Source: a virus
Lineage: Duplodnaviria > Caudoviricetes
Reading direction: 5' to 3' (one strand)
DNA: 64,000 nt
Virus record (IMG/VR): IMGVR_UViG_3300029288_004207
Span: 1-64,000 of that record
Below are positions 5,883-35,497 of the stretch, one piece after another; the stretch's first letter is position 1, and each line of letters opens with the position of its first letter. A model generated the notes under the pieces. The model had not been told where the DNA came from, did no database searches, and saw nothing but the letters and a program-made list of their open reading frames with translations. A program made the position numbers and the translations under genes.

Positions 5883-7163
5883 CTATACCTCCCCTAACAT
5901 TTCGTTTAGTGTGGAAAAGCGGACGCCGTAATACTTAATTTCTCCCAGTGTAGTGAAGGGCGGTCGTACTTCCAATGACCTGTCAAAAACAGGGCGGTGA
6001 AATGTAGGCAAGTTAGAGTAAAGCAACTTTGCCCGTATCGCCTTGAACGAGTACCCCCTGCCTGTATGATTGGTTAGCTTCACAAGCCCTGCTATCGCCT
6101 CGGTATAGGCGTTGGTGATTGGATGCTCCCACCATGCGAATATCTCGGCTTTCCAGTTGCCCACAGCCGTTGTGAGAGGCTTAAAGGCGGGCTGTAGCTC
6201 GGTCGGGATGCTTGCCTTAAGGGTTTCATACCGCTCTATGGCTTCCTGCCTGTCCTTGACCATCCAGAGGTCACAGAAGTCCTCTTTGAACTGGTACGCC
6301 TTGCCAAGCATAGGGAACTGCCCTAACCATAGGTCAAGTATGAACTGGTCTTGTTCGTCAAGGTCGCTCCGGCGATGGAATAGGATATAGCGGTCACGCT
6401 TCAGTGTCCGGCGTTGACGCGCGGTAAGGTGTGCCCTGGTATCTTTTCTTACCGTGTCCATGCCCTGAATGGCTAACCGGATAACGTGAAAGCGGTCTAT
6501 AACGACTGTGGCTTGCGGTAGAATGTCATTCACAGCGTCTTTATATGGCTGCCACATGTCCATAGCCACAAGCTGTATTCGCTGGCGGTCGGGGAGCTGG
6601 TGAAGGTAACGGCTAACCACGTCTTTAGTCCTCGATGTCAGCATATCAATGACGGTATTTTTCTCTACGTTGGTCAGTATGCACCTTGCTTTTCTCACAA
6701 GGTGGACTTCATCTATCCCCAACCATCGGGGTGTCTCAAACTTGACCTCGCTATCCAGCCTAGCCACTTCTAAACCGAACAAGCGCCGGACTGTCCGCTC
6801 ATGGATTCCGGTATCATCGGCTACACTTACGAACGTGCGCTTCATGCTTTCCTTGCCGATATAGCCTAGTAACCGGAGCGTGGCTGCGTGGTTTTTGTCC
6901 ATGTCCGGTAGTGGCTGGAAACTGGTTTTACCACAAGCTCGACAGTAATAACGTTGCCGATGCACAATTAGCCCAACACGCTTGTTGTGAATAGGCAAGT
7001 CCATAAATCGTTGCCTCTTGATACCATGCCGGTATAGTTCCCCCACTACTCCGCATCGGATACAGGCTTGAGGCTCCGGCGTATACTTCGCATGGATAGC
7101 GTAGTCATACTCGCTCTCTTTGACTTCCAGCAGTTCCCAATCTGGTAGATTCAGTATGTTCAT
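5883..7163 (-). CDS. ISL3-family DDE transposase
   Basis: N-terminal CxxC Zn finger, GIDEVH, AMDMWQPY, IDRFHVI, TNAYTEAI motifs. Confidence 0.95.
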   Translation of the reverse strand: MNILNLPDWELLEVKESEYDYAIHAKYTPEPQACIRCGVVGELYRHGIKRQRFMDLPIHNKRVGLIVHRQRYYCRACGKTSFQPLPDMDKNHAATLRLLGYIGKESMKRTFVSVADDTGIHERTVRRLFGLEVARLDSEVKFETPRWLGIDEVHLVRKARCILTNVEKNTVIDMLTSRTKDVVSRYLHQLPDRQRIQLVAMDMWQPYKDAVNDILPQATVVIDRFHVIRLAIQGMDTVRKDTRAHLTARQRRTLKRDRYILFHRRSDLDEQDQFILDLWLGQFPMLGKAYQFKEDFCDLWMVKDRQEAIERYETLKASIPTELQPAFKPLTTAVGNWKAEIFAWWEHPITNAYTEAIAGLVKLTNHTGRGYSFKAIRAKLLYSNLPTFHRPVFDRSLEVRPPFTTLGEIKYYGVRFSTLNEMLGEV

Positions 7164-15120: not shown

Positions 15121-15224
15121 TGTTTTAGGTGTCCACTATATTATTGGAACTATCGGTAAGCGTAATCTTAACCGAGCCTAAAGAATATTTACAGGAGGTA
15201 TGTTCTAATGAACTCTTATAAACT

Positions 15225-15935
15225 GTGAAAGTTATTTTAACATTTATAATTGCCGCAATATTTGTATATGTTGGTGCTAATATGTTGCCAGCAATTGGAG
15301 AAGCAACAAAAACAGTAGCCGAAAATCAAGAAGTAGGTAGTGGTGTTCAAGGTTTAGCTAGTGTACTTCCTTCAGTAATGATTATCTGTTTTGCAGCAAC
15401 GATAATATTTGGTTTAGTAAAAATGATGAGTAATAATGGAAAAGAAAAGAGTAAATCCATTACAGTCAGACTTGTTAGAAACGCTAAAGATTTTGTAGTA
15501 TCTATCAAAGAAGCATCTAATGGGTTAAGCCAGTATATCAATAATCTTGATGAACTTTTAAATATCAAAACTATAGAAGATTACAAGTTTGCTACTGAAT
15601 ATGGTTTAAATATGATAGGTAACAATCTTTTAATATGTGGTGGAGATACGATATGGGATTGGTATATCACGGAAAAACACCCTGATATGGATGTTTTTAA
15701 AGTAGTAGGTTTACACAAGAGAGATGCTTCTAAGAATGTTTTATACTTGCTTGGTAAAAACAGCGAAACCAACGCACCATTTCTTTATAAATTACCTGAA
15801 CAATATATTGATAAAGAATGTATAAAGGAGTGCGTTAAAGAAACAGGTATTGAAAAAGAAATGGTTGCAGTTCCGGTTAATATTGAAAATAAAGAACAAC
15901 GGTCAAAATCTTACATAGAAGATTCTAAACCATAA
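15225..15935 (+). CDS. Fusion: N-terminal paralog of the 67-aa capsid-like protein plus a soluble domain
   Basis: ILTFIIAAIFVYVGAN...SGVQGL...FAATIIFGLVKMMS aligns without long gaps to the spliced 20414-21052 product. Confidence 0.85.
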   Translation: MKVILTFIIAAIFVYVGANMLPAIGEATKTVAENQEVGSGVQGLASVLPSVMIICFAATIIFGLVKMMSNNGKEKSKSITVRLVRNAKDFVVSIKEASNGLSQYINNLDELLNIKTIEDYKFATEYGLNMIGNNLLICGGDTIWDWYITEKHPDMDVFKVVGLHKRDASKNVLYLLGKNSETNAPFLYKLPEQYIDKECIKECVKETGIEKEMVAVPVNIENKEQRSKSYIEDSKP

Positions 15936-17626: not shown

Positions 17627-18571
17627 CTAGGGCTGTTCCACCTGTTTCACACGAACCGGAATCTGATTCAGAAAGTTCGCAAACATAGGTGTCTCGCTCT
17701 TGCGATGATTATAGCGGAATGAATATTCGTTAACGTAGGATTGGAGATACTTAGGGGAAACATTATGATACACACCACCGATACCACGCTTAACGAGCGA
17801 CCAGAAACCCTCAATGGTGTTCGTGTGAACGATGCCACGAGAATACTCGTGTATGGAATGATTCACTATTTGATGGTTATAACCGTTCTTGTTAAGCGGG
17901 TTGTATGCGCTCATTTCATCCGTGTAAACAGTGGTGTTAGGCTCTACGTTCTCTTTTACTTGGGGTATAATGGTTGCTTGGTCAGTATTAGGCACAACCA
18001 CCGCTTTAACATCGCCCTTGCGTTCTACAGCCCCGAATACGGGCGTTTTGTCCGCCGTGCCACGACCTGTGAGGTTGGCACGTTTGGAATCGTGCATGTT
18101 GATTGCCTTACCACCCATGTATGTCTCATCAAGTTCTACTTCACCGGAAAGCATTTTATTCTCGCCCAAGAGGGTACGAATCTGTTTGAACATACGCCAT
18201 GCTGTTTTATAGGTAACTCCAAGTTCACGTTGAAGCTGTTTAGCAGATATGCCACAGCGAGTAGAGGACATGAGGTATATAGCGTAAAACCAAGAGCGCA
18301 AAGAGGTCTCGGACTTATGGAATATGCTGTTAGCCGTTGGGGATACATGGCTTCTGCAAAACTTGCAGGTATATACTTTACGATTGGCTATTCTGTAATG
18401 TGTAGTTACCCTATCGCACTTCTGGCAGAATACGCCTTGCGGATAACGGAGTTTCAAGAGTATATCAAGGCACTCATTATCGGTAGGAAATTGCTTGTTA
18501 AATTCTTTGATTGTAAACTTTGTAGTAGTCATATTGCTCCTTTGGTTAATAAGTATGTTTAATTGTAGCAT
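17627..18571 (-). CDS. IS1595-family DDE transposase (probable start MTTTKF at 18532)
   Basis: Zn ribbon CQKC...CKFC, VELDETYMGG, VYTDE, HTNTIEGFWSLVKRG, YVNEYSFRYN; element ends not resolved. Confidence 0.95.
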   Translation of the reverse strand: MLQLNILINQRSNMTTTKFTIKEFNKQFPTDNECLDILLKLRYPQGVFCQKCDRVTTHYRIANRKVYTCKFCRSHVSPTANSIFHKSETSLRSWFYAIYLMSSTRCGISAKQLQRELGVTYKTAWRMFKQIRTLLGENKMLSGEVELDETYMGGKAINMHDSKRANLTGRGTADKTPVFGAVERKGDVKAVVVPNTDQATIIPQVKENVEPNTTVYTDEMSAYNPLNKNGYNHQIVNHSIHEYSRGIVHTNTIEGFWSLVKRGIGGVYHNVSPKYLQSYVNEYSFRYNHRKSETPMFANFLNQIPVRVKQVEQP

Positions 18572-20127: not shown

Positions 20128-20156
20128 TTGACAAAACAGTATCTTGACTTTATAAT
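20128..20156 (+). promoter_or_regulatory. Sigma70 promoter TTGACA-N17-TATAAT for the basic-protein and capsid-like genes
   Basis: Exact consensus. Confidence 0.85.
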
Positions 20157-20205: not shown

Positions 20206-20313
20206 TTGAAAGCAAGACGTTCAGCCAAACAAAAAGCGGCTACCAAGAAAATGATTGCTGCCGCAAAACGTGCAAATCTCAAAGGTGGGAAAAATAAGCA
20301 CGGTAAGGGCTAA
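20206..20313 (+). CDS. 35-aa K/R/A-rich basic protein (MKARRSAKQKAATKKMIAAAKRANLKGGKNKHGKG)
   Basis: Own translation, TTG start; composition suggests nucleic-acid binding. Confidence 0.65.
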   Translation: MKARRSAKQKAATKKMIAAAKRANLKGGKNKHGKG

Positions 20314-20413
20314 ATACCCTTAAAAGCACTTTAACAATTGCATATTCCTTTTTTGTAAATCTGCTTACATTCAAGCAATATAGCAGAAATAATGGTCGGA
20401 GGTCTTTGAATGA

Positions 20414-21052
20414 ATGCAGATGATTTTGGGTTGGCAAAACAGCCCCTTCATTCAGTGATGGATGAAGCAAACCCATCTAAACGGGGGAAACCTGAAATGG
20501 CAATCCCGTACTAAGCAGAAAGAGAACCAATCTTTCGGGCATGTGTAACGACTTTACGGTGGGTATCTGTTTACAAGATAGATAAAGAGAAAGTCTGCTC
20601 TGCAACAAATTAACATCCCTTAATCTTCAGACTAAGTTGCAGTTAACACAAAGGTTAATTTTCGCAGCCATCTTCGTATATGTGGGCGTGAACCTGGAGC
20701 CTGGTCTTAACCAGACCGTAGCTACTATCACGACTCCGACATATTCCAGTGGCGTTGCCGGACTCAACGGGGTAATCATGATTGTCTTTGCAGCCATAAG
20801 ATATAAAATTGTGGCTTTGGGGAGTAATCTCCATTGTAAAACGCATCAAATTCGGGGAAGCCTAAACTCTTTTAAGAGCATGGTAATCGCCGAGCTAAGC
20901 AGGAAAGCTAATGCTTTCTGGGCATGTGGAGAGACTAGATGGTGCGCTTCCAATTTAAATTGGAAGATGGTATAGTCCGAACCTCATCTAAAGGTGAGTT
21001 GACATAACGGATAATCTTCGGAGTTGTCAAGCAAATGTCCGCCGCCGCCTAA
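20414..21052 (+). CDS. 67-aa two-helix hydrophobic protein, candidate major capsid or pilin-like subunit; exons 20414-20431, 20655-20797, 21010-21052
   Basis: Spliced product MQMILGLIFAAIFVYVGVNLEPGLNQTVATITTPTYSSGVAGLNGVIMIVFAAMIIFGVVKQMSAAA is colinear with the intron-less paralog at 15225; C-ending codon bias (ATC, TTC, GCC, AAC) unlike the AT-rich background. Confidence 0.9.
20432..20654 (+). ncRNA. Group I intron 1 (223 nt, no ORF)
   Basis: P1 GGGU/GCCC with U-G at the 5' splice site; P2 with GUGA loop; P3 ACCCAUC/GGUGGGU; P AAACGGGGGAA; Q AAUCCCGUACUAAGC; P7 GACUU/AAGUC; terminal G. Confidence 0.9.
20798..21009 (+). ncRNA. Group I intron 2 (212 nt, no ORF)
   Basis: P1 AGCCAU/GUGGCU with U-G; P3 CGCAUC/GGUGCG; P AAAUUCGGGGAA; Q AAUCGCCGAGCUAAGC; P7 GACUA/UAGUC; P8 CUUCCAAU/AUUGGAAG; ends ...UAACG. 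Confidence 0.93.
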
Positions 21053-21078
21053 CAGAATACTTTCGCCTCAATAGAATT

Positions 21079-21121
21079 GGGGAGATACTTTAGAATTATT
21101 TTTGATATCTCCCCTTTTCTT
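21079..21121 (+). terminator. Probable intrinsic terminator after the capsid-like gene
   Basis: GGGGAGATA/TATCTCCCC stem plus T-tract; long loop. Confidence 0.55.
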
Positions 21122-21134
21122 GTGCCAAAATCTA

Positions 21135-21163
21135 TTGACAAATAGACATAAGTATGATATATT
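21135..21163 (+). promoter_or_regulatory. Sigma70 promoter TTGACA-N17-TATATT with extended TG
   Basis: Near consensus. Confidence 0.75.
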
Positions 21164-21612: not shown

Positions 21613-22470
21613 ATGGTGATAAGAAACGAATACGCTATCAATAAACAAAGGGAATCATTAAAGTTATTTTACCAAACAACTAAAGGTATTGCGTTTAAAA
21701 AACGATTAAGCGAACTTGCATCTAAAAATAAACCACATTTAGGGCATAATCATTCACCTGAAACTATAGAAAAAATGCGTATCGCTAAATTAGGTAAAAA
21801 GATGTCGTTAGAAACTAGACAAAAAATGAGTGAAGCACAAATGGGAGAAAAACACCACATGTTTGGTAAACATTGTAGTCAAGAGGTTAAAAATAGAGTT
21901 AGTGATGGTTTAAGACGTTTATACCAAACTGCTAAAGGTAAAAAGATAAGGGAAATAGTTGATAATGCTAATAAAGGCAATCATCATCATTTAGGTCATA
22001 AACATTCTGAAGAAGCATTAGAAAAAATGCGTAAGATAAAAACAGGTAAGGTGTTATCTGAAGAAACAAAAAATAAAATGCGTGAGTCACAAAAAGTTGT
22101 TTGGTCTAAGAGTATAGAATACAAAAACGAAAGAGTCGGTAATATAGTAAAAGGAAATAAAAATACTAAATACCCTAATAAAAAAGAAACCATAATATTA
22201 AATATGTTGCAGGAATTACAACCCGACACTCGGTATTTTATAGGTGGTGGAGATGGATTAAAAGTCGGTGGTAAAATACCAGATATTTATAATGGTAAAG
22301 ATAAACTTATAGAGCATTATGGTTATCACTGGCATCACAATCATAATCCGCAAGACCGCATTGACTTATTCGCTAAATATGGTTTTAAAACTTTAATTAT
22401 TCAAGAGATGGATTTGATTAAACATCCAGATAAAGTAAGGGAACAATTGATAGCGTTTATAAATAGTTAA
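21613..22470 (+). CDS. Free-standing homing-endonuclease-like protein: NUMOD3 repeats plus C-terminal PD-(D/E)xK/Vsr-like domain
   Basis: HSPETIEKMR, MSLETRQKMSEA, HSEEALEKMR, LSEETKNKMRES; GGKIPDIY...KLIEHYGYHWH. Confidence 0.85.
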   Translation: MVIRNEYAINKQRESLKLFYQTTKGIAFKKRLSELASKNKPHLGHNHSPETIEKMRIAKLGKKMSLETRQKMSEAQMGEKHHMFGKHCSQEVKNRVSDGLRRLYQTAKGKKIREIVDNANKGNHHHLGHKHSEEALEKMRKIKTGKVLSEETKNKMRESQKVVWSKSIEYKNERVGNIVKGNKNTKYPNKKETIILNMLQELQPDTRYFIGGGDGLKVGGKIPDIYNGKDKLIEHYGYHWHHNHNPQDRIDLFAKYGFKTLIIQEMDLIKHPDKVREQLIAFINS

Positions 22471-23167: not shown

Positions 23168-24232
23168 ATGAAAATGATACGCACAGTCAAGATAAATAGC
23201 CCGGTAAATAAGGGTAAACTTCAAGGGATACGCGAGTTTCTTGTAGAGTACCAAAACTGTGTTAATTACTTCATTGCGAGACTGTGGAGCGAACAACGTT
23301 TTCGCGGCTCATATCTGGATAAACCCTATATAGCTTCGGCGCGGAAACGATTTAATCTCACCGCCCGTTTAATCCAGTGCGCGGGGAAACAAGCGTTTGA
23401 AGTTGTTAAGTCACAGCGTAAAAAAGATACCAAACAATTTCCAAGATTCAAGACACTATCGGCTACACTGGATAGCCGTTTTTGGTCAATTACTGATAAC
23501 GAAAACACCTTTAATTGGTTAAAACTACAGTCAGGTTTTACTTACTTAATCCCGTTTACCAAGTCTAAACTTTGGGATAAGTGGCTTGAAAAAGGATTTA
23601 TACTCTCCAAATCTATGCGAGTTAGTATCAGAAAAGATAAACTAGAGCTAGAGTTTTTCTTTGAGCATGAATCACCGGAACTTAAACCCATTGGAAACAC
23701 CGAGGGATTAGATTTAGGGTACGTTAATCTAGCAACATGTTCTGATGGGCAGATGGTCGGCATGAGATTAAATCAGTTTATCCGTACATTCCCCAAACGC
23801 AAAAAACATACACATAAGACTATAACAAACAAGGTTTATCAAGAGCTAAAATCCCTTGATTTAAGCAAGATTAACACACTTGTTTTAGAGAACCTTAAAC
23901 GAGTAAAGCATAATACACGTGAGACGTTCTCACGAACACATAACAGGCGTTTATCTCATTGGCTATATGCCAAGGTGATTAGATGGTTGGAACAACGCTG
24001 TGAGGAACAGGGAATCCGCATAGAATACAAATCTCCCTGGAAAACTTCACAGAATTGTTCAGTCTGCCACAAATGGGATAAACGAAATCGTAACGGTGAA
24101 AGGTTTAAATGTGTAAACTGTGGGCATGAGGAACATGCGGACGTAATCGGCTCACAAAACCTCAAGTCGTTAGGATTGGCGGGAGTCTATAGTCTCCGTT
24201 TATTACCAACTCTTAATGGTGGGTGTCTATGA
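23168..24232 (+). CDS. tnpB: TnpB RNA-guided endonuclease (IS200/IS605-type)
   Basis: RuvC-I GLDLG, RuvC-II LVLENL, Zn finger CSVC...CVNC, RuvC-III HADVIGSQN. Confidence 0.92.
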   Translation: MKMIRTVKINSPVNKGKLQGIREFLVEYQNCVNYFIARLWSEQRFRGSYLDKPYIASARKRFNLTARLIQCAGKQAFEVVKSQRKKDTKQFPRFKTLSATLDSRFWSITDNENTFNWLKLQSGFTYLIPFTKSKLWDKWLEKGFILSKSMRVSIRKDKLELEFFFEHESPELKPIGNTEGLDLGYVNLATCSDGQMVGMRLNQFIRTFPKRKKHTHKTITNKVYQELKSLDLSKINTLVLENLKRVKHNTRETFSRTHNRRLSHWLYAKVIRWLEQRCEEQGIRIEYKSPWKTSQNCSVCHKWDKRNRNGERFKCVNCGHEEHADVIGSQNLKSLGLAGVYSLRLLPTLNGGCL

Positions 24233-25669: not shown

Positions 25670-28600
25670 ATGGCCTTACCAGTTAATTTATTCGGTATTC
25701 CGATTAAACCTCCGCCTCCTACACCGCCTACACCGCCTACTACGCCTACGCCTGCACCTACTTATAGTCCAACACAGGTAGCTCAAAACATACAGCAGAA
25801 AGTACAACAAGCAGAAGCTACAGGTAAGACTTATGCGGAAGTAGCTAATGTTTCTCCTACACCGCCTACACCGCCCACTACGCCTACGCCTGCACCTACT
25901 TATAGTCCAACACAGGTAGCTCAAAACATACAGCAGAAAGTACAACAAGCAGAAGCTACAGGTAAGACTTATGCGGAAGTAGCTAATGTTTCTCCTACAC
26001 CGCCTACACCGCCTACTACGCCTACGCCTGCACCTACTTATAGTCCAACACAGGTAGCTCAAAACATACAGCAGAAAGTACAACAAGTGGAAGTAGCTAA
26101 TGTTAAGGTTGTTGAACCAAGTAATATTATATATGTTTTAAAAACAACCAATCCTGATAAATTTACAGTTCGTGTAGATAATGGGGATAATACCTACAAG
26201 CAAGTACAAATGAGCCGTCAAGAAATAATTGATGCTGGCGGGGAAATACCTGTTGTTGGCGAAGCGTGGAAAGAGATTAATAATCCGTTATCTAATAAAA
26301 TGTTTTCTACCCCCAATGCTATTACAGAAACAGATATTAATAACGCTTATAAAGAACTTGGGTTAGAAATACCTGATTTTATATCAGCACCTCGCAATAA
26401 AAAGAACATGATTCTTGATGGTGATAATGCTGGTATGTTGGATGGTTTCTTTGATGAAGATGGTATAGCCTTGTATGAACATCCTGGGCAGTTTAGTAAT
26501 GTAGAATCTGCTATAAAATATGAAAATACAATAAAAGACCCGATTGCTAAAGAAGCATGGGAAAATGCTTTTGTAGCTTATTGGGGTAAACTTCCTAGTG
26601 AAATAGTGTATACATTACCAAATGATAAGGAAAAAGCTATATCAGCTTTGGGTTATAAAAGTGTAGATGACCCTGAATTAGTTGCGTTATTAGAACGTTA
26701 TAAGAGCAATCCAGAAGCCGAAGAATTTAAAACAGAAGCTAACGGTGGTACAATGTCTATTGCTAAAAAAACATTGTTATCATTCTTGGCTGATGTTCCT
26801 TACGATGCCGTCAAAGATTACCAGAGTAGTATTATTAGAGTTGGAACAGATATAACTTCAGGGACATTCTCACAAATGGTAGCCAGTGAATATGCCCGTA
26901 AGCATAATATGTCATTTGCTGATGTTTCTCAAATGATTCGTGATGCGGTTAATGGTAAAGAAAACGCTAACGTAAATAAATTGAGTGCTTCGGAAAAAGA
27001 AGCATTTAATAATTTAGTTACTCGTTGGAGTGCAGGTGCAGATTATATTACAAAGACTGAAGCAGATAATATAAAAGAATTAGACCCTGAAGGGTATGAT
27101 TTATTACTCAAAAAAGGTTTAGATGCTTATCAATTAAGACAAGAAACGATTGCTAGTAGTTTTGAACCTTATGTACTCGCAACAGGCGCAGATGGTTCAA
27201 AACAATATGGTTTGATGAAGATGGTAGATGCTTATAACAAGAATGAGTTATCAAAAAAACAGATTGAGTTAATTTTAGGTAAAGATGCATTAGATAAAAT
27301 ATTAAAGATATCCGATGAAGTTAATAGCATTAAAAAAGATTTTGAATCACAAATAGTGGATACTCTGCCCCCAAATTTACAGGAGGATTATAGGAAAGGA
27401 TTATCTAAGAATAATTTAGATGAGTTCCAAGAGAATTATCTTAGTTATATAACCAGCCAACAAGAAAGATACCAGAAATATCAAGATGCTGTTGATACTT
27501 TAACCGAATTAGGTTATAAGAAAATAATACCATCTTATAGTCCAACACAGGTAGCTCAAAACATACAGCAGAAAGTACAACAAGCAGAAGCTACAGGTAA
27601 GACTTATGCGGAAGTAGCTAATGTTTCTCCTACACCGCCTACACCGCATAATTTAGGTAATGCGCCTATATCAACTCAAGAACAAGCAACTCAATTTGTT
27701 GAAGGCGGTGTCGTTTACTATGATATCCCCTCTTATCTAAGAGATACCAAGACTAAAGATTATAAAGTTAATCCTGTATCTGTATTGGTTTTAGAAAATC
27801 TTTTTGGCGGGGATAAAGAAGCGGCAAAACCAATCATAGATTCAGCACAAAAGCAACTTGATTATTTATCAACTACTATAAACCATCTGCAAAATGATAA
27901 GTTAGATAATGCGCAAGTTGAAGCTCTAAGAAAAGCATTAATAGGAGTTGTAGGGCAACCTTTTAATGCAGATGAAGCATGGTTCTTAAATGCAGATGAT
28001 TTAATGAAATTAAGGGCAGAAGCACCGGAATTACAAAGAGAATTAGATGATGCATTGGTTAAAACAAATGCAGAGCAATCATTAAAAGAGTTTTTAGGTA
28101 AATTATCGCAGGGTGATTTAGAAAAAGTTGCCGATATTTGGAGTTATGATGTAGAAAGATATAGCCCGTTTGCTCAAACAGTAACGGCTTATAATGAAGC
28201 AATAAATAAAACACCATTAGCTAAATGGGCAAAAATGCCAGTATACTTTACTCCAGTTGGTATGGGATTAGCTGCTACGGAATCTGTTGCCGGATTAGTT
28301 TCTCCATATACAATTTCTGATGAAGCTATAGTAAGACAAATTGATGATAACTATACTTATCTTAATTCAACGGATAAATTAGATGCTGAAGTAAATGATA
28401 TTTTAGCAAAAGCGTTAAAAGATAACGATATTAAAGTTGATGAAGAAAATGCTTTACAAACCTACAAAAGCCTTGATGATTCTCAAAAAACAAAGGTTAT
28501 AAAAGAATATACTCGTAATATGTTGGGATTAGACCCATCTGTTATGGATAAAATAATGACAGGTGCTATGGTTATAGCAGCAGCCATTGGTTTTAAAGGT

Positions 28601-31600
28601 CAAGTTTTAAACCCAATAGTTAGTAATATAATAAGTAAATACGGAATAAAAGCACCGGAATTTCTTAAGTCACTTAATAAACTCAGTGATTTGGGTTCAA
28701 GGGTACTCCATGTTCCGATTACAGGTTTATTCATAGCTGGCAGTGTTCCTACTATTACTAATCCAAAAGTAGCATTAGATGATAAGGTAATGGCTATTGT
28801 TTTTGATTTTATGATGTTGAGGGGATTAGGTGGTGGATTGATTGGGGCGACTAAAGTAGGGTTTAAAAGACCAACAACAGAAATTTCACCTAAAATACCA
28901 AGTATAGAAATGGCAGTTGACAAGGTAACAAGTAAAGTGGCAAGTCCTGAAGTATTAATAGATATAAGTTTAAGTGCTAGACGTTCTGCTAATCTACACG
29001 ATATAAGTTATAATTTTGGTGAAGCAGTAGCTTATATGAAAAATATTCCAACTGCTACTGTCAAAGCATTATCATTGGCTATTTTAAATACTACAGAGAC
29101 AATGAGTAGAGCAGGGCAGGTATTAAGACTTAATATGGCTAATATGACAGATGCCGTATTACGTAGTGTTTCCCAAACAATGTTGGAAGCATCTGAATCT
29201 TTAAATGCTTTATATACTGCTGTTAGAAATGGGACTATAACAGATGCTATGGCAAGAGAAATTTCCGGTAAATTATTACAAGCCAATGAATCTATAAATG
29301 ATGTAATTAATTCTGTTAAAACTGGCATATCAGAAACTTATGATGCTACTTTAAAGGGATTATCAAAGTCATTATTAGATACATCGGAAAATATAAACAG
29401 TATCATAAAATCCATCAAGGAAACTGGTGGGAAATTAACCGATGAAGCATTAAGTAATATTTCTAAAGGGTTATTAGACGCTGAAGAATGGATTGGTAAA
29501 ACATCAGAATTACTTAAAACAAAATATAGTGAATTAACCGATGAAGCAATTCGTAATTTATCGGAAGATTTACTTAATATCTCTGACAAGATAACGAGTG
29601 TAAAAGATTATATTGCCAAAGGTGAACTTACCGATGCTATGTTGCGTGGTTTATCCGAGCAATTATTAAAAGTATCGGATTCAAGTAATAGTGCATGGGA
29701 AGTAATTAAAACAAAGGTATCTGATGTAACAGATGCAACATTGCGTGGTGTTTCTGAAAAAATGCTGGAAACATCTGAATCGGTAGAAAATGCTATAAAG
29801 AGCGTTAAAGATACTGCTGGTAAATTTACGGATAATACTATTAAGGATTTATCTAAAGCATTACTTGATATCAGTGAGCTTGTAAATAAAACAATAGAAA
29901 ATGTAAATACCAAGTATAATCAAGTATCAGATGCAATATTAAAAGATGTCTCCTTACGTTTATTGGAAATATCTAATAAATTAAATGAAATTTATCAATC
30001 AGTGATAGATGGTACTATTACGGATGCTATGTTGCGTGGTTTATCCGAGCAATTAATGAGCGTATCGGATTTTACAAATGGGGCTTTAAATACTTTAAAA
30101 ACAAAATATGAAGCGATAACTGATAAATTATTACGTGATACATCAAAGCAATTACTTGAAGTATCTGATAATTTCAATAAGGTTATTACGGCGTTAAAGA
30201 AAGCACCATCGGATGCCAGAGATGGAATCTTACGCCAGATATCAGAACAGTCTTTAAAAGCTAATGAAGCGTTAACTAATACTGTAAATCATATAAAAAA
30301 TGCGGTAGGTAATGCTAACGATGCTGTAATATTGAAGTTATCTCAAGGATTATTGGATGCTTCAGAATCACTAACCAAGATGTATGATTATATTGCCAAA
30401 GGTGAACTTACAGATGATATATTAAGGAATACATCAAAGCAACTAATGAAAGTCAGCGATACCATCAATCAGTCTAGAGAAGTAGTCAAGGCATTAGCTC
30501 AAGGTGTTTGGGAATATACTACAGAGATATTACCAGAAAATATAAAGGCTGGCATACGAAGTCCTTATTATAAGGCTATAGATACTTTATCATCTGATAT
30601 ATCTGAAATATCCAGTGGATTTAAAGATGCTATGTCTGGTAAGCCTAAAGCAGACCATTGGGTAAGATTTGCACAAGAACGTAATAGGGCATTAGAAGAT
30701 AATATGGAAGCGGTAGCAGGGGTTACTACTCAACAAGCTAAAAAAGATTTAGAAGAAACACCTGAATATGATATAGATGAATCACGCTGGCAACTAACTG
30801 GTATTATACCTAAGACATATAGAGCGATAGAAGCACGTATCAGTCCGAGAACATCTGCCGGACATGTTTATGCTTTAACGGCAGATGTAGGACGTGAAAA
30901 TATTCCTAAAGGAATGTCTCAACTTACTGCTAGACAGTTAACGCAGGATGTTGAACAAGCACAACTTACTTCCAAAATACCTGCAAATAGAGTTCGTGCG
31001 TTAGAAGGTACAGGATTACAAGAAGATGGAACTATTGAGGTTAATAAATTGCCTAATGGCACAATAGATGTTGTATTCAAAACTCGTGATGGTGATGTTT
31101 GGGGAAGGGTTTCAGGTATGCAAAGAGTGCTAGGAGATGTGCTTTACAATGGTACAGCTAATGGCAATGTGATATTGGCGCAGATACTTAAAAATGGAAT
31201 AGAGAAAACTTATAAAACAGCAACACCACAAGAAAAGGTATTATTAGATAATTTAATGAAAAATGGTGCAGATGAAATAGCATTTAGTTATGACCCCAAT
31301 GCTTATGATAGTGTGCTTAAAAAATTTATTAACAATCCTGAATATAAGGATATTCTTAAAAAAGTAAATGATAATGCTTATCATGAAGTAAGAGATTATT
31401 ATGTTAATACAGCAGGGGAGAAAGTTCCAGTATCACGAGCATTTGAATGGGAAAGCCAGCAAATAGCTCAAGCGTTTACTGCCAGAGGGCATGGAGACCC
31501 AGTAGTTGCACCGATGGTATTTGCTACTAGAACAACACCTAAAGATTTTCTAGAAACCATGCCGGATAAACCATTGGATAATCGTGCTAATGCCATGAGA

Positions 31601-34600
31601 AAAGCATTTGAGGAAATGAATAAAAGTGGTTTATTAGATAAAGATAAAATATATAACATATTTAAAGTTTATCAAGGGCAAGTAGAATATGAACTTGTTA
31701 AACCATTAGGATTTGAAACATCTGTAGCCAAGCCAACATCTTATGCTGGTGGAGAAAATGCTTTATTCCCTAGTACATTTGTAACGAGTATGTTTGATTA
31801 TCATGGACTTGGGCATCAAATAAGAACTGGTGATAAGATACCTATTATATGGATGACGACTAAAAATGCCAAAGAATCAGGGTTGGGTGTCCCGACCAGA
31901 GGGGAAATATATCTTGGTAAGATATTAGGTGATTTAACTTTAGCCAGACAGAGATTGCCTTGGAATTGGAGATTTAGGGAAGAAGATAAATATTCTGAAG
32001 ATGATGTAACTGTTAATAATCCTTTAATGTCTGGAATAAAACAGATTACATTAAAAGCTCGCCCTGAAGATGCTGAAGCAGGGCGTGTTAGTGCAATCAT
32101 AAGAGATAATAATGGTAGAGTATTACTTGTAAAGACTAAGGGTGGAAGTACTTATGATTTGCCTGGTGGTGGAGTTAATAAACGTGGTATCGGTGGAATA
32201 ATAAAAGAACATCCTGATAATGCTATGAAAGCAGAAATATGGGAAGAACTTGGTTTAAATACTGATAAGTTAAATTATATAGGCACGATAGAAAGTAGAT
32301 TTACTAATAAAAGTCCAAAAGAAAACTTTCGTATCTATGAAGCTGATGTTTCAGGTAAAATAAAAGATGCTGGTGTTGAAGTAGCAGATTATATTTGGTG
32401 GGATGGGAAAAAGGATGTTAAATTATCAGAATTTACCAAAGAAGCGTTACAAAGGGCAAGTGAACGTGCTACTGAAATAGATGAATTAGTAGCTAAAGAT
32501 GTTTATACTAATATAGCTGATACATTGATGAAAAAATATGGTAAGTCTAAAGCACCTGATTGGGATAGTATTTACGAAAAAATTAGAAATAAGAATCATA
32601 TAGTATTTGATTTAGATAAGACTTTGGTTGACAGTAACGGTAAATTATTGAAGGGGGCAAAAGAGTTTGTAGATAGACTTAAAAAAGAAGGCAAGCAAGT
32701 ATCACTATGGACACATTCTACAAGTGAAAGAGCAAATCGTATATTAGATAGAGCAGGATTATCTAACTATTTTGATAATGTTGTTACTCGTGAGCAATAT
32801 GAACCTACGGGTAAAAACCCCAATGCTTTTAAAGATATTAATAAAATAAAAGGTGATGTGCTTGTTGATGATAGATTTGAAGGGTTTATAAAAGAAGCCG
32901 ATATAGTTAATGAAATAAAACAAAAAGTTGATAGTGGTGAAACACAAAAAGAAATAAACAATAATGAAAAACGCATAAATGAAATTCTTGAAGAACTGAA
33001 TAAAACAACAGAACAAAAAAGAAAACAACAGTTAATGGAAGAACTTGACCAACTTAACATAGATAATATTATAACTAAAAAAGAAGCTGATATAGCCAAA
33101 GACATAGATAATATAAAACAGGAAGCAAAGGAAAAAGGTATCAATGAAGATGAATTAATACGTGATAAACTAATGGATAGAGTAATAGAGGATATTGACC
33201 CCTATAGGGATGCTCGCAGAGAATTACGCTATCGCAGAGAAAAATATCCAGAGCAAGAACTAATATTAGCAGAAAGAGATAGATTACCTATAGAGACTGA
33301 TGAATCAAGGAAGTTGCTTGATTATGGCTTAGAAGATTATACAAAAAGTTCTGATGAAGATATGGAATCATTCGCCAAGTCTTTTGATGAAAGAGAACTT
33401 GGATTAAAAGAAAAAAGAGAAGAACCTGTTTTAAAAATAACCAAAGAAGAAGAACCAGTTACCACAGAGCCAGAGGAAGAAATAACACCAACAGAATTAG
33501 AAGAGGAAAAAATACCTCCACAAAAACCTGAAGAAGAAATTATACCACCGCCACCAGAGAAAGAAATTATACCACCGCCACCAGAGAAAGAAATTATACC
33601 ACCGCCACCATTCAAAGGTTTTATTAAGGCGAGAGATAGTAGTGGTAAGGAAGTTGACCTTGAAATAAAACCTGGAAGTGTTGTTTGGATACAAGGTCGT
33701 CCAAAAGCTAAAGGTAGTGGTAATGCACCAATGTATAAAATTTCATTACCACCTTACACCGATGAAACCTTGTATACATCAAGGGAAAATCCCCCTGGCT
33801 ATAAAGATATGGGATGGGAAGGTAAAGGAAGTGCTAGAGCATCTATTCAATGTTTTCCTAAAGGAACAAAGATACTTATTAGGCAAAAGAGACTAAATAA
33901 TAATCAATATAACAGAAAAAGTAGTTACTCTTATGTTCCTAGTGATATGGCTATAGATAAAATAAAAATTGGTGATTATGCATTATCTTATAATGAAAAA
34001 ACTGGTGAAAAGGAATTTAAAGAAATTAAGAATATTTTTAAAAGACAAACTGACAAATTTGTAAAGATATATCTTTTTAATGGTAATGAAATAATTTGTA
34101 CACCTGAACATCCAATAGCAATTAATGTAAAAGGAAAGATAGAATGGATAGAAGCCAAAGAATTGCAAAATGGTTATGAGATATTACAATATCAATACTC
34201 AGGTTTATATATGAGATTAAGTCAGATACCTAATAAGGGTAAAACATTAGAGGAAATATATGGTGAAGAAAAAGGAAAGGAAATAAAAAGGAAAATATCG
34301 GAACATCACTCTAGGCACAATCTAGGACGTATCTTCAGTGAAGAACATAGAAGGCGGATTGGTGAAAAATCTCGTGGTAGACAATTTACCCTTGAATCAC
34401 GTGCAAAAATGAGTCATAGCAATAAAATAAGATGGGATAAAGATAATGGTAAGGAAAGAAAAGAAAGAAGCGAGATTTTTAAAGCTAAGTGGAGGGACTT
34501 AAAATATTCTCAAGCAACATTACTTAAAATGGGTGTAAAGTTTAATAAACATGAACAGTTACTTTCATTAATACTAGACCATATATGCCCTAAAGAATTT

Positions 34601-35497
34601 AAATATAATGGCGATGGTAACTTAGGATTATCGTTTGATGGAATACATCCAGATTTTGTAAATGTGAATGGTAAGAAAAAAGTTATAGAAGTATTTGCCG
34701 AACATTGGAAAGTAGTAAAATATGGAAGTGTAGAAAATTATATAAAATTAAGGAGTGAAAGATTTAAAAATATAGGTTATCAGTCGTTATTTATAAAAAA
34801 TAAAGAATTTAATGATTTAGAAACATTGCAACATAAAATTATGAATTTTGTCTATAATCCTAAAACAGAATTAGTAAAAGTAGTAAAGATAGAAACTATA
34901 TATAAAGAATTACAAGATGTTTATAATTTAGAGGTACAAGATAATAATAATTATTTTGTATATGGGATATTAGTACATAATTGTGTTGGCGGGAATCCGC
35001 CTACTGATATAGAGAATCTTGACTTGGGGTTCGTGAAGATAAATATCCGATTCGCAAGTGGTGAACCTCTGATAGAGTTTGTCCAAGATGAAGATGCCAA
35101 TGCTGGACAAAAATCTCAAACAATCGGCATGGGTAGAGGTCAAATACCTGTAGAAGATTGGCAGGAAGCAAAAGATAGAGGGGTAAAATATAAGGATTTT
35201 ATTAAGCAGTATCGTAGTGGAACAAAATCAGCCCCACAATCTTTAATAGAAGAAATAGGAATAGCTGAAGAAAAACCTAGAGATAAAATGCAAGAACTTG
35301 CTAGACTTATTATTCAAGCGAGTGATGAAGAAAAACAGGCACAAGAAGAAGAAAGCCAAAGATTTTTAGAAGAAGCCAAAAAACCAGCTAAAAATTGGTG
35401 GGATGAACCTATGTATGAAAATATTGGTCAAACAAGTAATGCGAGATATTATAGGGGAAGAAGGATACCATCAGCTAATATAGAGGTAGATATTTAG
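25670..35497 (+). CDS. 3275-aa multidomain protein: P/T repeats, 33-aa helical repeats, NUDIX, HAD-like, Pro-rich linker, intein
   Basis: NUDIX box YDLPGGGVN...AEIWEELGL; HAD IVFDLDKTLVD...VLVDD; repeats read directly. Confidence 0.9.
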   Translation: MALPVNLFGIPIKPPPPTPPTPPTTPTPAPTYSPTQVAQNIQQKVQQAEATGKTYAEVANVSPTPPTPPTTPTPAPTYSPTQVAQNIQQKVQQAEATGKTYAEVANVSPTPPTPPTTPTPAPTYSPTQVAQNIQQKVQQVEVANVKVVEPSNIIYVLKTTNPDKFTVRVDNGDNTYKQVQMSRQEIIDAGGEIPVVGEAWKEINNPLSNKMFSTPNAITETDINNAYKELGLEIPDFISAPRNKKNMILDGDNAGMLDGFFDEDGIALYEHPGQFSNVESAIKYENTIKDPIAKEAWENAFVAYWGKLPSEIVYTLPNDKEKAISALGYKSVDDPELVALLERYKSNPEAEEFKTEANGGTMSIAKKTLLSFLADVPYDAVKDYQSSIIRVGTDITSGTFSQMVASEYARKHNMSFADVSQMIRDAVNGKENANVNKLSASEKEAFNNLVTRWSAGADYITKTEADNIKELDPEGYDLLLKKGLDAYQLRQETIASSFEPYVLATGADGSKQYGLMKMVDAYNKNELSKKQIELILGKDALDKILKISDEVNSIKKDFESQIVDTLPPNLQEDYRKGLSKNNLDEFQENYLSYITSQQERYQKYQDAVDTLTELGYKKIIPSYSPTQVAQNIQQKVQQAEATGKTYAEVANVSPTPPTPHNLGNAPISTQEQATQFVEGGVVYYDIPSYLRDTKTKDYKVNPVSVLVLENLFGGDKEAAKPIIDSAQKQLDYLSTTINHLQNDKLDNAQVEALRKALIGVVGQPFNADEAWFLNADDLMKLRAEAPELQRELDDALVKTNAEQSLKEFLGKLSQGDLEKVADIWSYDVERYSPFAQTVTAYNEAINKTPLAKWAKMPVYFTPVGMGLAATESVAGLVSPYTISDEAIVRQIDDNYTYLNSTDKLDAEVNDILAKALKDNDIKVDEENALQTYKSLDDSQKTKVIKEYTRNMLGLDPSVMDKIMTGAMVIAAAIGFKGQVLNPIVSNIISKYGIKAPEFLKSLNKLSDLGSRVLHVPITGLFIAGSVPTITNPKVALDDKVMAIVFDFMMLRGLGGGLIGATKVGFKRPTTEISPKIPSIEMAVDKVTSKVASPEVLIDISLSARRSANLHDISYNFGEAVAYMKNIPTATVKALSLAILNTTETMSRAGQVLRLNMANMTDAVLRSVSQTMLEASESLNALYTAVRNGTITDAMAREISGKLLQANESINDVINSVKTGISETYDATLKGLSKSLLDTSENINSIIKSIKETGGKLTDEALSNISKGLLDAEEWIGKTSELLKTKYSELTDEAIRNLSEDLLNISDKITSVKDYIAKGELTDAMLRGLSEQLLKVSDSSNSAWEVIKTKVSDVTDATLRGVSEKMLETSESVENAIKSVKDTAGKFTDNTIKDLSKALLDISELVNKTIENVNTKYNQVSDAILKDVSLRLLEISNKLNEIYQSVIDGTITDAMLRGLSEQLMSVSDFTNGALNTLKTKYEAITDKLLRDTSKQLLEVSDNFNKVITALKKAPSDARDGILRQISEQSLKANEALTNTVNHIKNAVGNANDAVILKLSQGLLDASESLTKMYDYIAKGELTDDILRNTSKQLMKVSDTINQSREVVKALAQGVWEYTTEILPENIKAGIRSPYYKAIDTLSSDISEISSGFKDAMSGKPKADHWVRFAQERNRALEDNMEAVAGVTTQQAKKDLEETPEYDIDESRWQLTGIIPKTYRAIEARISPRTSAGHVYALTADVGRENIPKGMSQLTARQLTQDVEQAQLTSKIPANRVRALEGTGLQEDGTIEVNKLPNGTIDVVFKTRDGDVWGRVSGMQRVLGDVLYNGTANGNVILAQILKNGIEKTYKTATPQEKVLLDNLMKNGADEIAFSYDPNAYDSVLKKFINNPEYKDILKKVNDNAYHEVRDYYVNTAGEKVPVSRAFEWESQQIAQAFTARGHGDPVVAPMVFATRTTPKDFLETMPDKPLDNRANAMRKAFEEMNKSGLLDKDKIYNIFKVYQGQVEYELVKPLGFETSVAKPTSYAGGENALFPSTFVTSMFDYHGLGHQIRTGDKIPIIWMTTKNAKESGLGVPTRGEIYLGKILGDLTLARQRLPWNWRFREEDKYSEDDVTVNNPLMSGIKQITLKARPEDAEAGRVSAIIRDNNGRVLLVKTKGGSTYDLPGGGVNKRGIGGIIKEHPDNAMKAEIWEELGLNTDKLNYIGTIESRFTNKSPKENFRIYEADVSGKIKDAGVEVADYIWWDGKKDVKLSEFTKEALQRASERATEIDELVAKDVYTNIADTLMKKYGKSKAPDWDSIYEKIRNKNHIVFDLDKTLVDSNGKLLKGAKEFVDRLKKEGKQVSLWTHSTSERANRILDRAGLSNYFDNVVTREQYEPTGKNPNAFKDINKIKGDVLVDDRFEGFIKEADIVNEIKQKVDSGETQKEINNNEKRINEILEELNKTTEQKRKQQLMEELDQLNIDNIITKKEADIAKDIDNIKQEAKEKGINEDELIRDKLMDRVIEDIDPYRDARRELRYRREKYPEQELILAERDRLPIETDESRKLLDYGLEDYTKSSDEDMESFAKSFDERELGLKEKREEPVLKITKEEEPVTTEPEEEITPTELEEEKIPPQKPEEEIIPPPPEKEIIPPPPEKEIIPPPPFKGFIKARDSSGKEVDLEIKPGSVVWIQGRPKAKGSGNAPMYKISLPPYTDETLYTSRENPPGYKDMGWEGKGSARASIQCFPKGTKILIRQKRLNNNQYNRKSSYSYVPSDMAIDKIKIGDYALSYNEKTGEKEFKEIKNIFKRQTDKFVKIYLFNGNEIICTPEHPIAINVKGKIEWIEAKELQNGYEILQYQYSGLYMRLSQIPNKGKTLEEIYGEEKGKEIKRKISEHHSRHNLGRIFSEEHRRRIGEKSRGRQFTLESRAKMSHSNKIRWDKDNGKERKERSEIFKAKWRDLKYSQATLLKMGVKFNKHEQLLSLILDHICPKEFKYNGDGNLGLSFDGIHPDFVNVNGKKKVIEVFAEHWKVVKYGSVENYIKLRSERFKNIGYQSLFIKNKEFNDLETLQHKIMNFVYNPKTELVKVVKIETIYKELQDVYNLEVQDNNNYFVYGILVHNCVGGNPPTDIENLDLGFVKINIRFASGEPLIEFVQDEDANAGQKSQTIGMGRGQIPVEDWQEAKDRGVKYKDFIKQYRSGTKSAPQSLIEEIGIAEEKPRDKMQELARLIIQASDEEKQAQEEESQRFLEEAKKPAKNWWDEPMYENIGQTSNARYYRGRRIPSANIEVDI
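25718..26088 (+). repeat. 138-bp (46-aa) tandem repeat, about 2.7 copies; further partial copy at 27534-27647
   Basis: Unit starts at 25718, 25856, 25994. Confidence 0.95.
33851..34981 (+). mobile_element. Intein (377 aa) with NUMOD3 and endonuclease-like insert
   Basis: N-term CFPKGTKI, block B CTPEHP, C-term VYNLEVQDNNNYFVYGILVHN followed by +1 Cys. Confidence 0.95.

Follow-up and report, generated by a model that had tools for sequence, protein, structure and literature searches.

How does a coding sequence of only 204 nucleotides (nt) come to be split by two group I introns, and what do such introns mean for the gene and the virus that carry them? This question is raised by a locus of the IMG/VR record IMGVR_UViG_3300029288_004207, which comprises 80,562 nt and has a completeness of 51% according to CheckV. 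We analysed the first 64 kb of this record, hereafter the window, in which positions 20414-21052 hold a small gene made of three exons and two group I introns devoid of any open reading frame (ORF).

The explanation that we favor, to which we assign as a whole a probability of about 0.8, runs as follows. A primary transcript would extend from a sigma-70 promoter at 20128, through an ORF for a basic protein of 35 amino acids (aa), to a hairpin at 21079-21121, and it would hold two ORF-less ribozymes belonging to different clades of group I introns. The guide sequence of each ribozyme would pair with the last 4-6 bases of the upstream exon, a U.G pair would mark the splice site, and the intron would end in G. 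Self-splicing would then produce the joins GGU/UUA and GCCAU/GAUA, and thereby the mRNA for a 67-aa alpha-helical hairpin protein. An uncultured, non-tailed virus most likely uses this protein as its major coat or membrane subunit, and the protein would be a relative of spindle-virus capsid proteins (SSV VP1/VP3 and His1 VP21). The introns themselves would be optional selfish elements rather than a regulatory device, and they would accumulate in the coat-type gene because this gene is extremely conserved. Occupied sites would be spread by homing, probably aided in trans by a free-standing endonuclease gene and, in some relatives, also through LAGLIDADG ORFs borne by the introns, and new sites within the gene would be reached by guide-directed reverse splicing.

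The split gene and its two ribozymes

Excision of both introns, which represent 68% of the gene, leaves an ORF of 204 nt encoding 67 aa (Table 1), as the preliminary description of this DNA had proposed. The decisive test of the exon joins was the search for intron-less alleles. Exon 2, used alone as a query, retrieved 60 proteins of about 65-67 aa. The closest intron-less metagenomic homologue among them, P0001 (67 aa, carried on contigs of 58-83 kb), is the same as the reconstructed product at 66/67 residues: exon 1 corresponds to its residues 1-6, and exon 2 matches it with 98% identity over 47 aa. When the DNA of the P0001 allele is aligned with the window, both insertions are precisely absent from it. 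A spliced aligner, built on a nucleotide profile from 30 intron-less homologue cDNAs and allowing long jumps constrained to start after an exon T and to finish on an intron G, returned the very exons that had first been described. The intron-less paralogue at 15225 had also been put forward in support of both junctions, and it does span them, since it aligns end to end with the spliced product (48% identity over 69 aa). Fused forms associating the hairpin with a soluble domain, like this paralogue, also occur elsewhere (P0086, P0091). A mini-ORF of seven codons (ATG...TGA) overlaps the GTG start of the paralogue, which suggests that the latter is translationally coupled.

The ribozyme nature of the insertions was examined with the RF00028 covariance model, searched on the 851-nt region 20300-21150. 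Both introns are matched, intron 2 over its full length (20788-20999) and intron 1 over 20412-20616. A scan of the whole 64-kb window at the Rfam gathering threshold gave 0 matches; because the same model yields 71.7 bits on the small region, this zero is a false negative of the speed filter. Each intron ends in G and has a guide sequence whose P1 helix places a U.G pair at the 5' splice site, and the P3 and P7 pairings initially noticed are present as well. In intron 1, the guide is CAGCCC (20440-20445), an in-frame TGA lies at 20456-20458 and the terminal G is at 20654. In intron 2, the guide is TTGTGGCT (20809-20816) and the terminal G is at 21009; the frame of exon 2 stays open through this intron as far as a TAG at 20973-20975.

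The cores are further backed by covariation. For the clade of intron 1 (clade A, 15 introns, core P2-P9 including the P3/P7 pseudoknot), 96.9% of the cells are paired and 31/43 pairs show compensatory changes, as compared with about 37% of paired cells and 3-11 compensatory pairs in slid controls. Intron 1 retains 40/43 of the core pairs of this consensus, with additional insertions in P6 and P9. In the clade of intron 2 (clade B), compensatory changes affect 37/48 pairs, also in P1, where the U.G pair is found in 10/10 sequences. Two observations weigh against this reading. Only intron 2 passes the Rfam gathering score of 50 bits, intron 1 remaining below it at 45.4 bits, and a compact subclade of clade A (188-197 nt) gives no RF00028 match at all, so that its assignment rests on covariation and on an alignment with the other introns over the whole core. 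The comparison of sequences nonetheless leaves us nearly certain of the group I identity of the two insertions and of the exon joins, and it indicates that both clades are ribozymes under selection rather than debris. A profile search (nhmmer) with both clades revealed no further copies in the whole 80.5-kb record.

The exons are under selection too. The spliced coding sequence (CDS) differs from the allele of locus L008 at 50/204 nt, with a single amino-acid change and 43 codons that differ only synonymously; the gene is therefore functional and its exons are under strong purifying selection. The preference for C-ending codons, which had been noticed at the outset, is borne out by a G+C content at third codon positions (GC3) of 0.60 and a C content at these positions (C3) of 0.36, against 0.18-0.39 and 0.03-0.18, respectively, in 22 other genes of the window, and the coat-type gene is GC3-enriched in other elements as well. 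The promoter at 20128, the basic ORF, a GGAGG motif, the split gene and a terminator-like hairpin probably form a small operon. The hairpin was missed by a terminator scan because its loop is 18 nt long. The basic ORF is kept directly upstream of the homologous gene in at least seven other loci (L007, L010, L022, L027, L034, L061 and L081), and it encodes a candidate DNA-binding partner of the coat protein. As for the claim that gene callers miss the gene entirely, it proved too strong: calls are made, and they come out truncated or chimeric. This is the case of a 112-aa ORF in the window (20637-20975), and of database proteins of 95-138 aa that match the coat-type family only as far as an intron site.

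Table 1. Position of the split gene, of its introns and of other features in the window, unless another locus is given
Feature	Position	Strand	Remarks
Exon 1	20414..20431	+	18 nt, MQMILG; 3' end is the U of the P1 U.G pair
Intron 1	20432..20654	+	223 nt, ORF-less, clade A; RF00028 45.4 bits, E 3e-10
Exon 2	20655..20797	+	143 nt, residue 7 to bases 1-2 of codon 54
Intron 2	20798..21009	+	212 nt, ORF-less, clade B; RF00028 71.7 bits, E 4e-18
Exon 3	21010..21052	+	43 nt, rest of codon 54 to residue 67, then TAA stop
Sigma-70-type promoter	20128..20156	+	TTGACA-17-TATAAT, 12/12 consensus match
Highly basic 35-aa ORF	20206..20313	+	From the ORF list; probably in the same transcription unit as the split gene
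Shine-Dalgarno motif	20398..20402	+	GGAGG, 11 nt before the start codon; read from sequence
Terminator-like hairpin	21079..21121	+	9-bp stem GGGGAGATA/TATCTCCCC, then TTTTCTT; read from sequence
Free-standing homing-endonuclease-like gene	21613..22470	+	285 aa, NUMOD3 motifs; 560 nt downstream
Intron-less paralogue	15225..15935	+	236 aa: two-helix hairpin (residues 1-69) and C-terminal soluble domain
Mini-ORF	15209..15229		Seven codons
Perfect sigma-70 promoters (12/12)	8436(-), 11083, 12506, 20128, 40451		
Transposase	5883..7163	-	
IS1595-family transposase	17627..18571	-	
TnpB gene	23168..24232		IS605 OrfB/Cas12f-like
Giant ORF	25670..35497		3275 aa
Intein in giant ORF	about 33968..34981		Residues 2760-3104; Intein_splicing, PT-HINT
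Zot/pI-like P-loop ATPase	41620..42525		Pfam E 1e-5
Divergent DNA polymerase	L078:10797..12428	-	PHROG E 8e-16, no Pfam match

Proposed movement of introns within a conserved gene

A scan of metagenomes provided 70 loci with homologues of the gene, in which introns were called by the spliced aligner and by inspection. Introns are present in 22/70 loci and none is found in the other 48/70. They occupy about ten sites of the 204-nt CDS. RF00028 supports those at c18 (59.8 and 41 bits), c41 (74.8 bits), c92 (66.4, 59.3 and 54.9 bits), c137 (47.8 bits), c161 (71.7, 57.1, 56.9 and 47.8 bits) and c176 (57.1, 56.4 and 40.3 bits); its score is weak at c53 (21 bits, E 0.012), and it gives no support at c19, c70 and c140. 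Several introns can be combined in a single gene. L070 has three of them, separated into exons of 70, 22, 45 and 67 nt, and L076 has at least 4 in the visible 177 nt of CDS, with 1264 nt of intron for exons of 84, 24, 15 and 28 nt, so that introns represent more than 85% of this gene.

Some particular arrangements were observed among these loci. The 67-aa gene occurs as two or three copies in tandem in L009, L024-L028, L038-L040, L049, L059-L062 and L072, which recalls the VP1/VP3 pairs, and L016, L021 and L023 combine an intron-free copy with a split one. The clade B introns at c161 in L016 (1145-1350), L043 (1047-1259), L067 (105-320) and probably L044 have a non-canonical boundary. In the alleles of L016, L043 and L067, whose exon 3 nonetheless shows perfect conservation, the conserved reading frame requires the join ATG/ATC. 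This implies either a 5' splice site shifted by one base to the 3' side of the invariant U.G pair, or an intron with a terminal A in place of the usual G.

Phage capsid genes interrupted by group I introns, and phage genes with several introns, are already known. The preliminary description had phage group I introns mostly in DNA-metabolism, terminase or lysin genes, and the premise that they stay out of structural genes is outdated: the major capsid protein (MCP) genes of crAss-like phages of the Delta and Zeta groups are interrupted by several of them (Yutin et al. 2021, PMC7886860). There, as in our probable capsid gene of a probably bacterial virus, multiple introns split the gene and mislead gene callers. 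The crAss-like MCP is however a large HK97-type protein whose introns were recognised through their endonuclease ORFs, whereas here the gene is 204 nt long, the introns of the window are ORF-less, the intron fraction reaches the values given above and exons can be as small as 15-28 nt. The novelty lies in scale and pattern: so small a gene offers about ten alternative sites and such micro-exons. ORF-less sister introns that track a motif of 4-5 nt, a recurrent free-standing endonuclease gene and a spindle-virus-like capsid gene under bacterial signals are also new. In Staphylococcus phage Twort, orf142 alone contains three group I introns. This system (its ribozyme is cited in PMC3984707) likewise associates several self-splicing group I introns with one short phage gene, splicing being predicted in our case; it nevertheless corresponds to a fixed set in one genome, whereas we deal with a population that has about ten sites, two clades and presence/absence polymorphism.

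How were so many sites reached? We built a tree of 24 introns in which the P1 region was left out. It separates two clades, each with a support of 95/99: clade A brings together introns at c18, c19, c70, c137 and c176, among which intron 1 of the window, and clade B those at c41, c92, c140 and c161, among which intron 2. Five sites are represented in one subclade of clade A that has 100/100 support. Well-supported branches force repeated changes of site, and introns with up to 87% identity are found at different sites. The guide sequence of each intron is complementary to its own upstream exon, and the two change together: guides GCCC(C) face the exon motif GGG(G)U at c18, c19, c70 and c137, guides GCGC(C) face GGCGU or AGCGU at c176, c137 and c53, and a guide GUCCC faces GGGAU at c176. 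The co-varying pairs are GGGU-GCCC, GGCGU-GCGCC and GGGAU-GUCCC. Between c18 and c19, a synonymous codon choice shifts GGGU by 1 base, and the intron shifts along with it.

Near-identical clade A introns at different motif-matched sites are the pattern expected for transposition by reverse splicing. The classical circumstantial case for this route is that of nuclear ribosomal DNA (rDNA), in which related group I introns occupy different sites (PMC3984707, refs 55, 86). According to a review, such rDNA introns have so far given this route circumstantial support only, and reverse-splicing mobility was never shown directly (PMC3984707). Our introns resemble them in that close relatives lie at different positions, each after a short sequence complementary to the guide. 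They differ from them in that they lie within 204 nt of viral protein-coding sequence, the virus being probably a bacterial one, and show a 1-nt site shift that follows the motif. Reverse splicing may accordingly be proposed for the spread of sites within the gene, an attribution suggested by the sequences that we hold as tentative, at somewhat less than even odds.

Some facts speak against it. The complementarity between guide and exon is needed for splicing whatever the route of insertion, and may reflect survivorship; in addition, many GGGU and GCGU motifs of the gene are empty. These facts would suit a process in which sites arose at the DNA level, by relaxed endonuclease cleavage or illegitimate recombination, and in which only the introns with matching or adapted guides survived. 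Homing endonuclease genes are indeed abundant around and inside the introns, and guides do change within a tight subclade (GCCC, GCGCC, GUCCC). However, this process does not readily account for introns up to 87% identical that share the guide GCCC[C] and follow GGG(G)U at c18, c19, c70 and c137, nor for the c18/c19 shift, which follows the motif and not the codon position, and the sites lack any longer common similarity that would suggest a shared endonuclease target. We therefore see a purely DNA-level origin of the sites as rather unlikely.

The spread of occupied sites is another matter, for which DNA-level homing is likely on the basis of the genes found nearby. Downstream of the split gene lies a free-standing gene for a putative homing endonuclease (Pfam NUMOD3 E 6e-20, and a PHROG homing endonuclease match), whose homologues adjoin the coat-type gene in at least 16 other metagenomic loci and in L080, a contig from a metagenome-assembled genome (MAG). 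These homologues accompany 8/16 intron-bearing loci versus 6/39 intron-less ones (Fisher p = 0.015), an association that is modest, involves non-independent loci and is confounded by the size of contigs, which also counts against our reading. Introns can also carry their own endonuclease: in L055, a 691-nt intron at c92 encodes a 205-aa LAGLIDADG protein (L055:1118-1735), and relatives of it lie in longer introns at c92/c53 (L076:191-655, L077:339-935). The L076 copy has no N-terminal motif and looks degenerate. Part of the intein of the giant ORF (34247-34708) resembles the free-standing endonuclease, with 28% identity over 156 aa.

The combination of an adjacent endonuclease gene, whose cleavage activity is predicted, with ORF-less introns resembles collaborative homing. 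In this type of trans homing, described for the cyanophage pair psbA/F-CphI, an ORF-less intron is mobilised with an adjacent free-standing endonuclease (PMC3984707). The highly conserved gene, the absence of ORFs in the introns, the endonuclease gene alongside and its recurrence across relatives are common to both systems. The endonuclease is here a candidate of the NUMOD3 type, in which no nuclease domain could be assigned.

Nature of the encoded protein

The 67-aa product matches no curated family above its threshold, either in Pfam or among NCBI-style names, and a search of PDB sequences returned nothing significant. Several independent weak signals nevertheless converge on spindle-virus capsid proteins, which leads us to regard a capsid-type role, of the spindle-virus MCP kind, as likely; the capsid-type identity first proposed gains support from profile comparison and phrog_5402, with a fold search pointing weakly the same way. 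The reference families are VP1/VP3 of Fuselloviridae (PF06281, PHROG 5402; SSV19 VP1, PDB 7XDI) and VP21 of His1 (PF25665). Phrog_5402, which we could show to be the SSV1 VP1/VP3 family, is matched by 9/20 members of our family (best E 9.6e-4). His1_capsid is the Pfam family most often touched by members, and the Atlas neighbor list includes a cluster that has His1_capsid in 11% of its members.

Profile-profile comparison with hhalign (option -M first) gave probabilities of 90.8% for SSV VP1/VP3 (score 35.4) and 62.7% for His1 VP21 (score 26.1), in colinear alignments; with default settings, they are 56% and 42%, respectively. Column-shuffled controls have a mean score of about 10 and a maximum of 15.8, the best reversed control scores 16.4, and the probability is at most 3% in all these controls. 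The two reference families compared with each other reach 50%, so that the similarity of our family to them is as strong as that between them. The AlphaFold model (predicted local distance difference test, pLDDT, 77) shows two helices, 2-19 and 38-66, arranged as a hairpin. When searched with Foldseek against 350,542 PDB chains, its first match is the SSV19 capsid protein (7xdi_A), with a weak template modelling (TM) score of 0.38.

Like VP1/VP3 and VP21, the protein would have a length of about 70 aa and fold as an alpha-helical hairpin, its two helices being hydrophobic and its loop exposed and rich in Thr/Ser. The context is in keeping with this reading, with tandem paralogues in many loci and a conserved basic mini-protein encoded upstream, which may be a nucleic-acid-binding component of the virion, by analogy with SSV VP2; downstream lie the giant ORF and further ORFs without assignment. 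Other features set it apart from these families: no curated model passes, the genome is of at least 80 kb and the promoters are of bacterial type.

Several points weigh against the capsid assignment. The best E-value for PF25665 (His1_capsid) is 0.096, with 2/17 members touched, which falls short of the curated threshold; no PF06281 (VP1/VP3) match occurs among the members scanned with Pfam; the Foldseek match to 7xdi_A has an E-value of 1.1; and hallmark genes for other capsid proteins, for packaging or for a spindle-virus tail were not identified. The ORFs that were scanned included no gene for a terminase, a portal or an HK97 capsid.

One can hence ask if the product is some other small membrane protein, such as a holin-like or exclusion protein, a conjugative or type IV pilin, or an inovirus-type coat. 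Helical hairpins are common, and the BFVD fold search, which found generic ones only, is non-discriminating; no curated family exceeds its threshold; and a Zot-like ATPase (E 1e-5) and ArdC, both found here, also occur in filamentous phages and conjugative elements. However, the product resembles two spindle-virus MCP families in profile comparisons that are specific, colinear and far above shuffled controls, and the phrog_5402 matches add to this. The extreme conservation of the protein and a codon bias that fits a highly expressed gene, together with the tandem paralogues and the basic ORF, also argue for the capsid subunit, and we consider another membrane function as unlikely.

The pilin-like label of the preliminary description found no backing, as neither pilin nor coat matches were returned by Pfam or PHROG. 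Neither a class III signal peptide or processed leader with a single hydrophobic helix, as in pilins and g8p, nor a VirB2/TrbC family match is found in the product. Inovirus-coat and pilin identities were rejected on these grounds, as the predicted model has two helices and no leader, instead of the single helix and signal peptide of inovirus or type IV pilin subunits, and the genome, of at least 80 kb, encodes a DNA polymerase. The JGI name 'MnhF antiporter subunit' given to some homologues is an artefact of hydrophobic composition.

Place of the introns in the biology of the element

Does the host element make use of its introns? It had been suggested that they put virion production under double self-splicing control. 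The protein can indeed come only from spliced RNA, since unspliced RNA would yield nothing but a 14-residue peptide ending at the TGA of intron 1, and, exon 1 being very short, a ribosome in the act of initiation would sit over P1, so that splicing would compete with the initiation of translation. However, near-identical alleles (66/67 residues) lack both introns and 48/70 loci are intron-free; relatives differ freely in how many introns they have and where, and some introns carry homing endonuclease ORFs, all of which is usual for selfish elements. With introns that are optional, the double-control reading is unsupported, and we find it very improbable that the two ribozymes were retained for this purpose. 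Still less credible is a decaying pseudogene whose task is taken over by the paralogue at 15225, which has the same hairpin, or by another gene: the low Rfam score and extra P6 and P9 insertions of intron 1 could be invoked in its favor, but we rejected it in view of intact exons under strong purifying selection (1 amino-acid versus 43 synonymous codon changes), of the 40/43 core pairs kept by intron 1 and of an intact promoter, Shine-Dalgarno motif and terminator.

The preferred reading, that of optional selfish introns in a coat-type gene, leaves the question of the host. Five perfect TTGACA-N17/18-TATAAT sites are found in the 80.5-kb record where 0.1 are expected, and sites with a match of at least 11/12 number 20 against 5.7 ± 2.3 expected. 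Because of this enrichment in sigma-70 promoters and of the strong GGAGG ribosome-binding sites of the record, we have good confidence that the host is a bacterium, as judged from these signals. A bacterial RNA polymerase would therefore transcribe the element, whose coat-type protein nevertheless looks like those of archaeal spindle-shaped viruses; all the named spindle-virus relatives that we compared infect archaea. A scan of genome contigs found the family in three short MAG contigs only (Lutibacter, Thermodesulfobacteriota and Dehalococcoidales), which are too few and too short to designate a host. Megablast and tblastn against a phage collection gave no match, and scans of IMG/VR with the paralogue and with the family alignment gave no relatives.

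The rest of the element offers further observations. The giant ORF contains, besides its intein, NUDIX and HAD domains. The IS1595-family transposase, the TnpB gene and the second transposase sit in or near the putative structural module. A Zot/pI-like P-loop ATPase and a divergent DNA polymerase are encoded too (Table 1).

A broader picture can be drawn from these elements, one that we regard as doubtful at present: that of large bacterial viruses (at least 80 kb) with a hairpin capsid of the fusellovirus/His1 type, whose capsid gene would be an intron hotspot in which RNA-level hopping takes place between GGGU and GCGU sites by reverse splicing. To our knowledge, such a hairpin virion has been met only in archaeal viruses, and we are not aware of any group I intron hotspot denser than this 204-nt capsid-type gene.

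The locus has a first consequence for annotation. Intron-rich micro-genes of this type are badly mis-annotated, as illustrated by dozens of chimeric 'proteins', formed by read-through from exon into intron, in the public sets that we searched, and a standard whole-window Rfam run overlooked both introns. It is also an unusually dense hotspot for the study of mobile-RNA movement, and a compact natural system for a long-open question, namely whether reverse splicing carries group I introns to new sites. It associates a target of 204 nt with ORF-less ribozymes of 188-223 nt and with sister introns that share a guide at different sites, and many natural empty sites can serve as controls. The recurrent free-standing endonuclease genes make it a candidate for studying how endonucleases and ORF-less introns cooperate. 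Finally, if confirmed, a spindle-virus-like capsid expressed from bacterial promoters would mean that this virion architecture extends beyond archaea.

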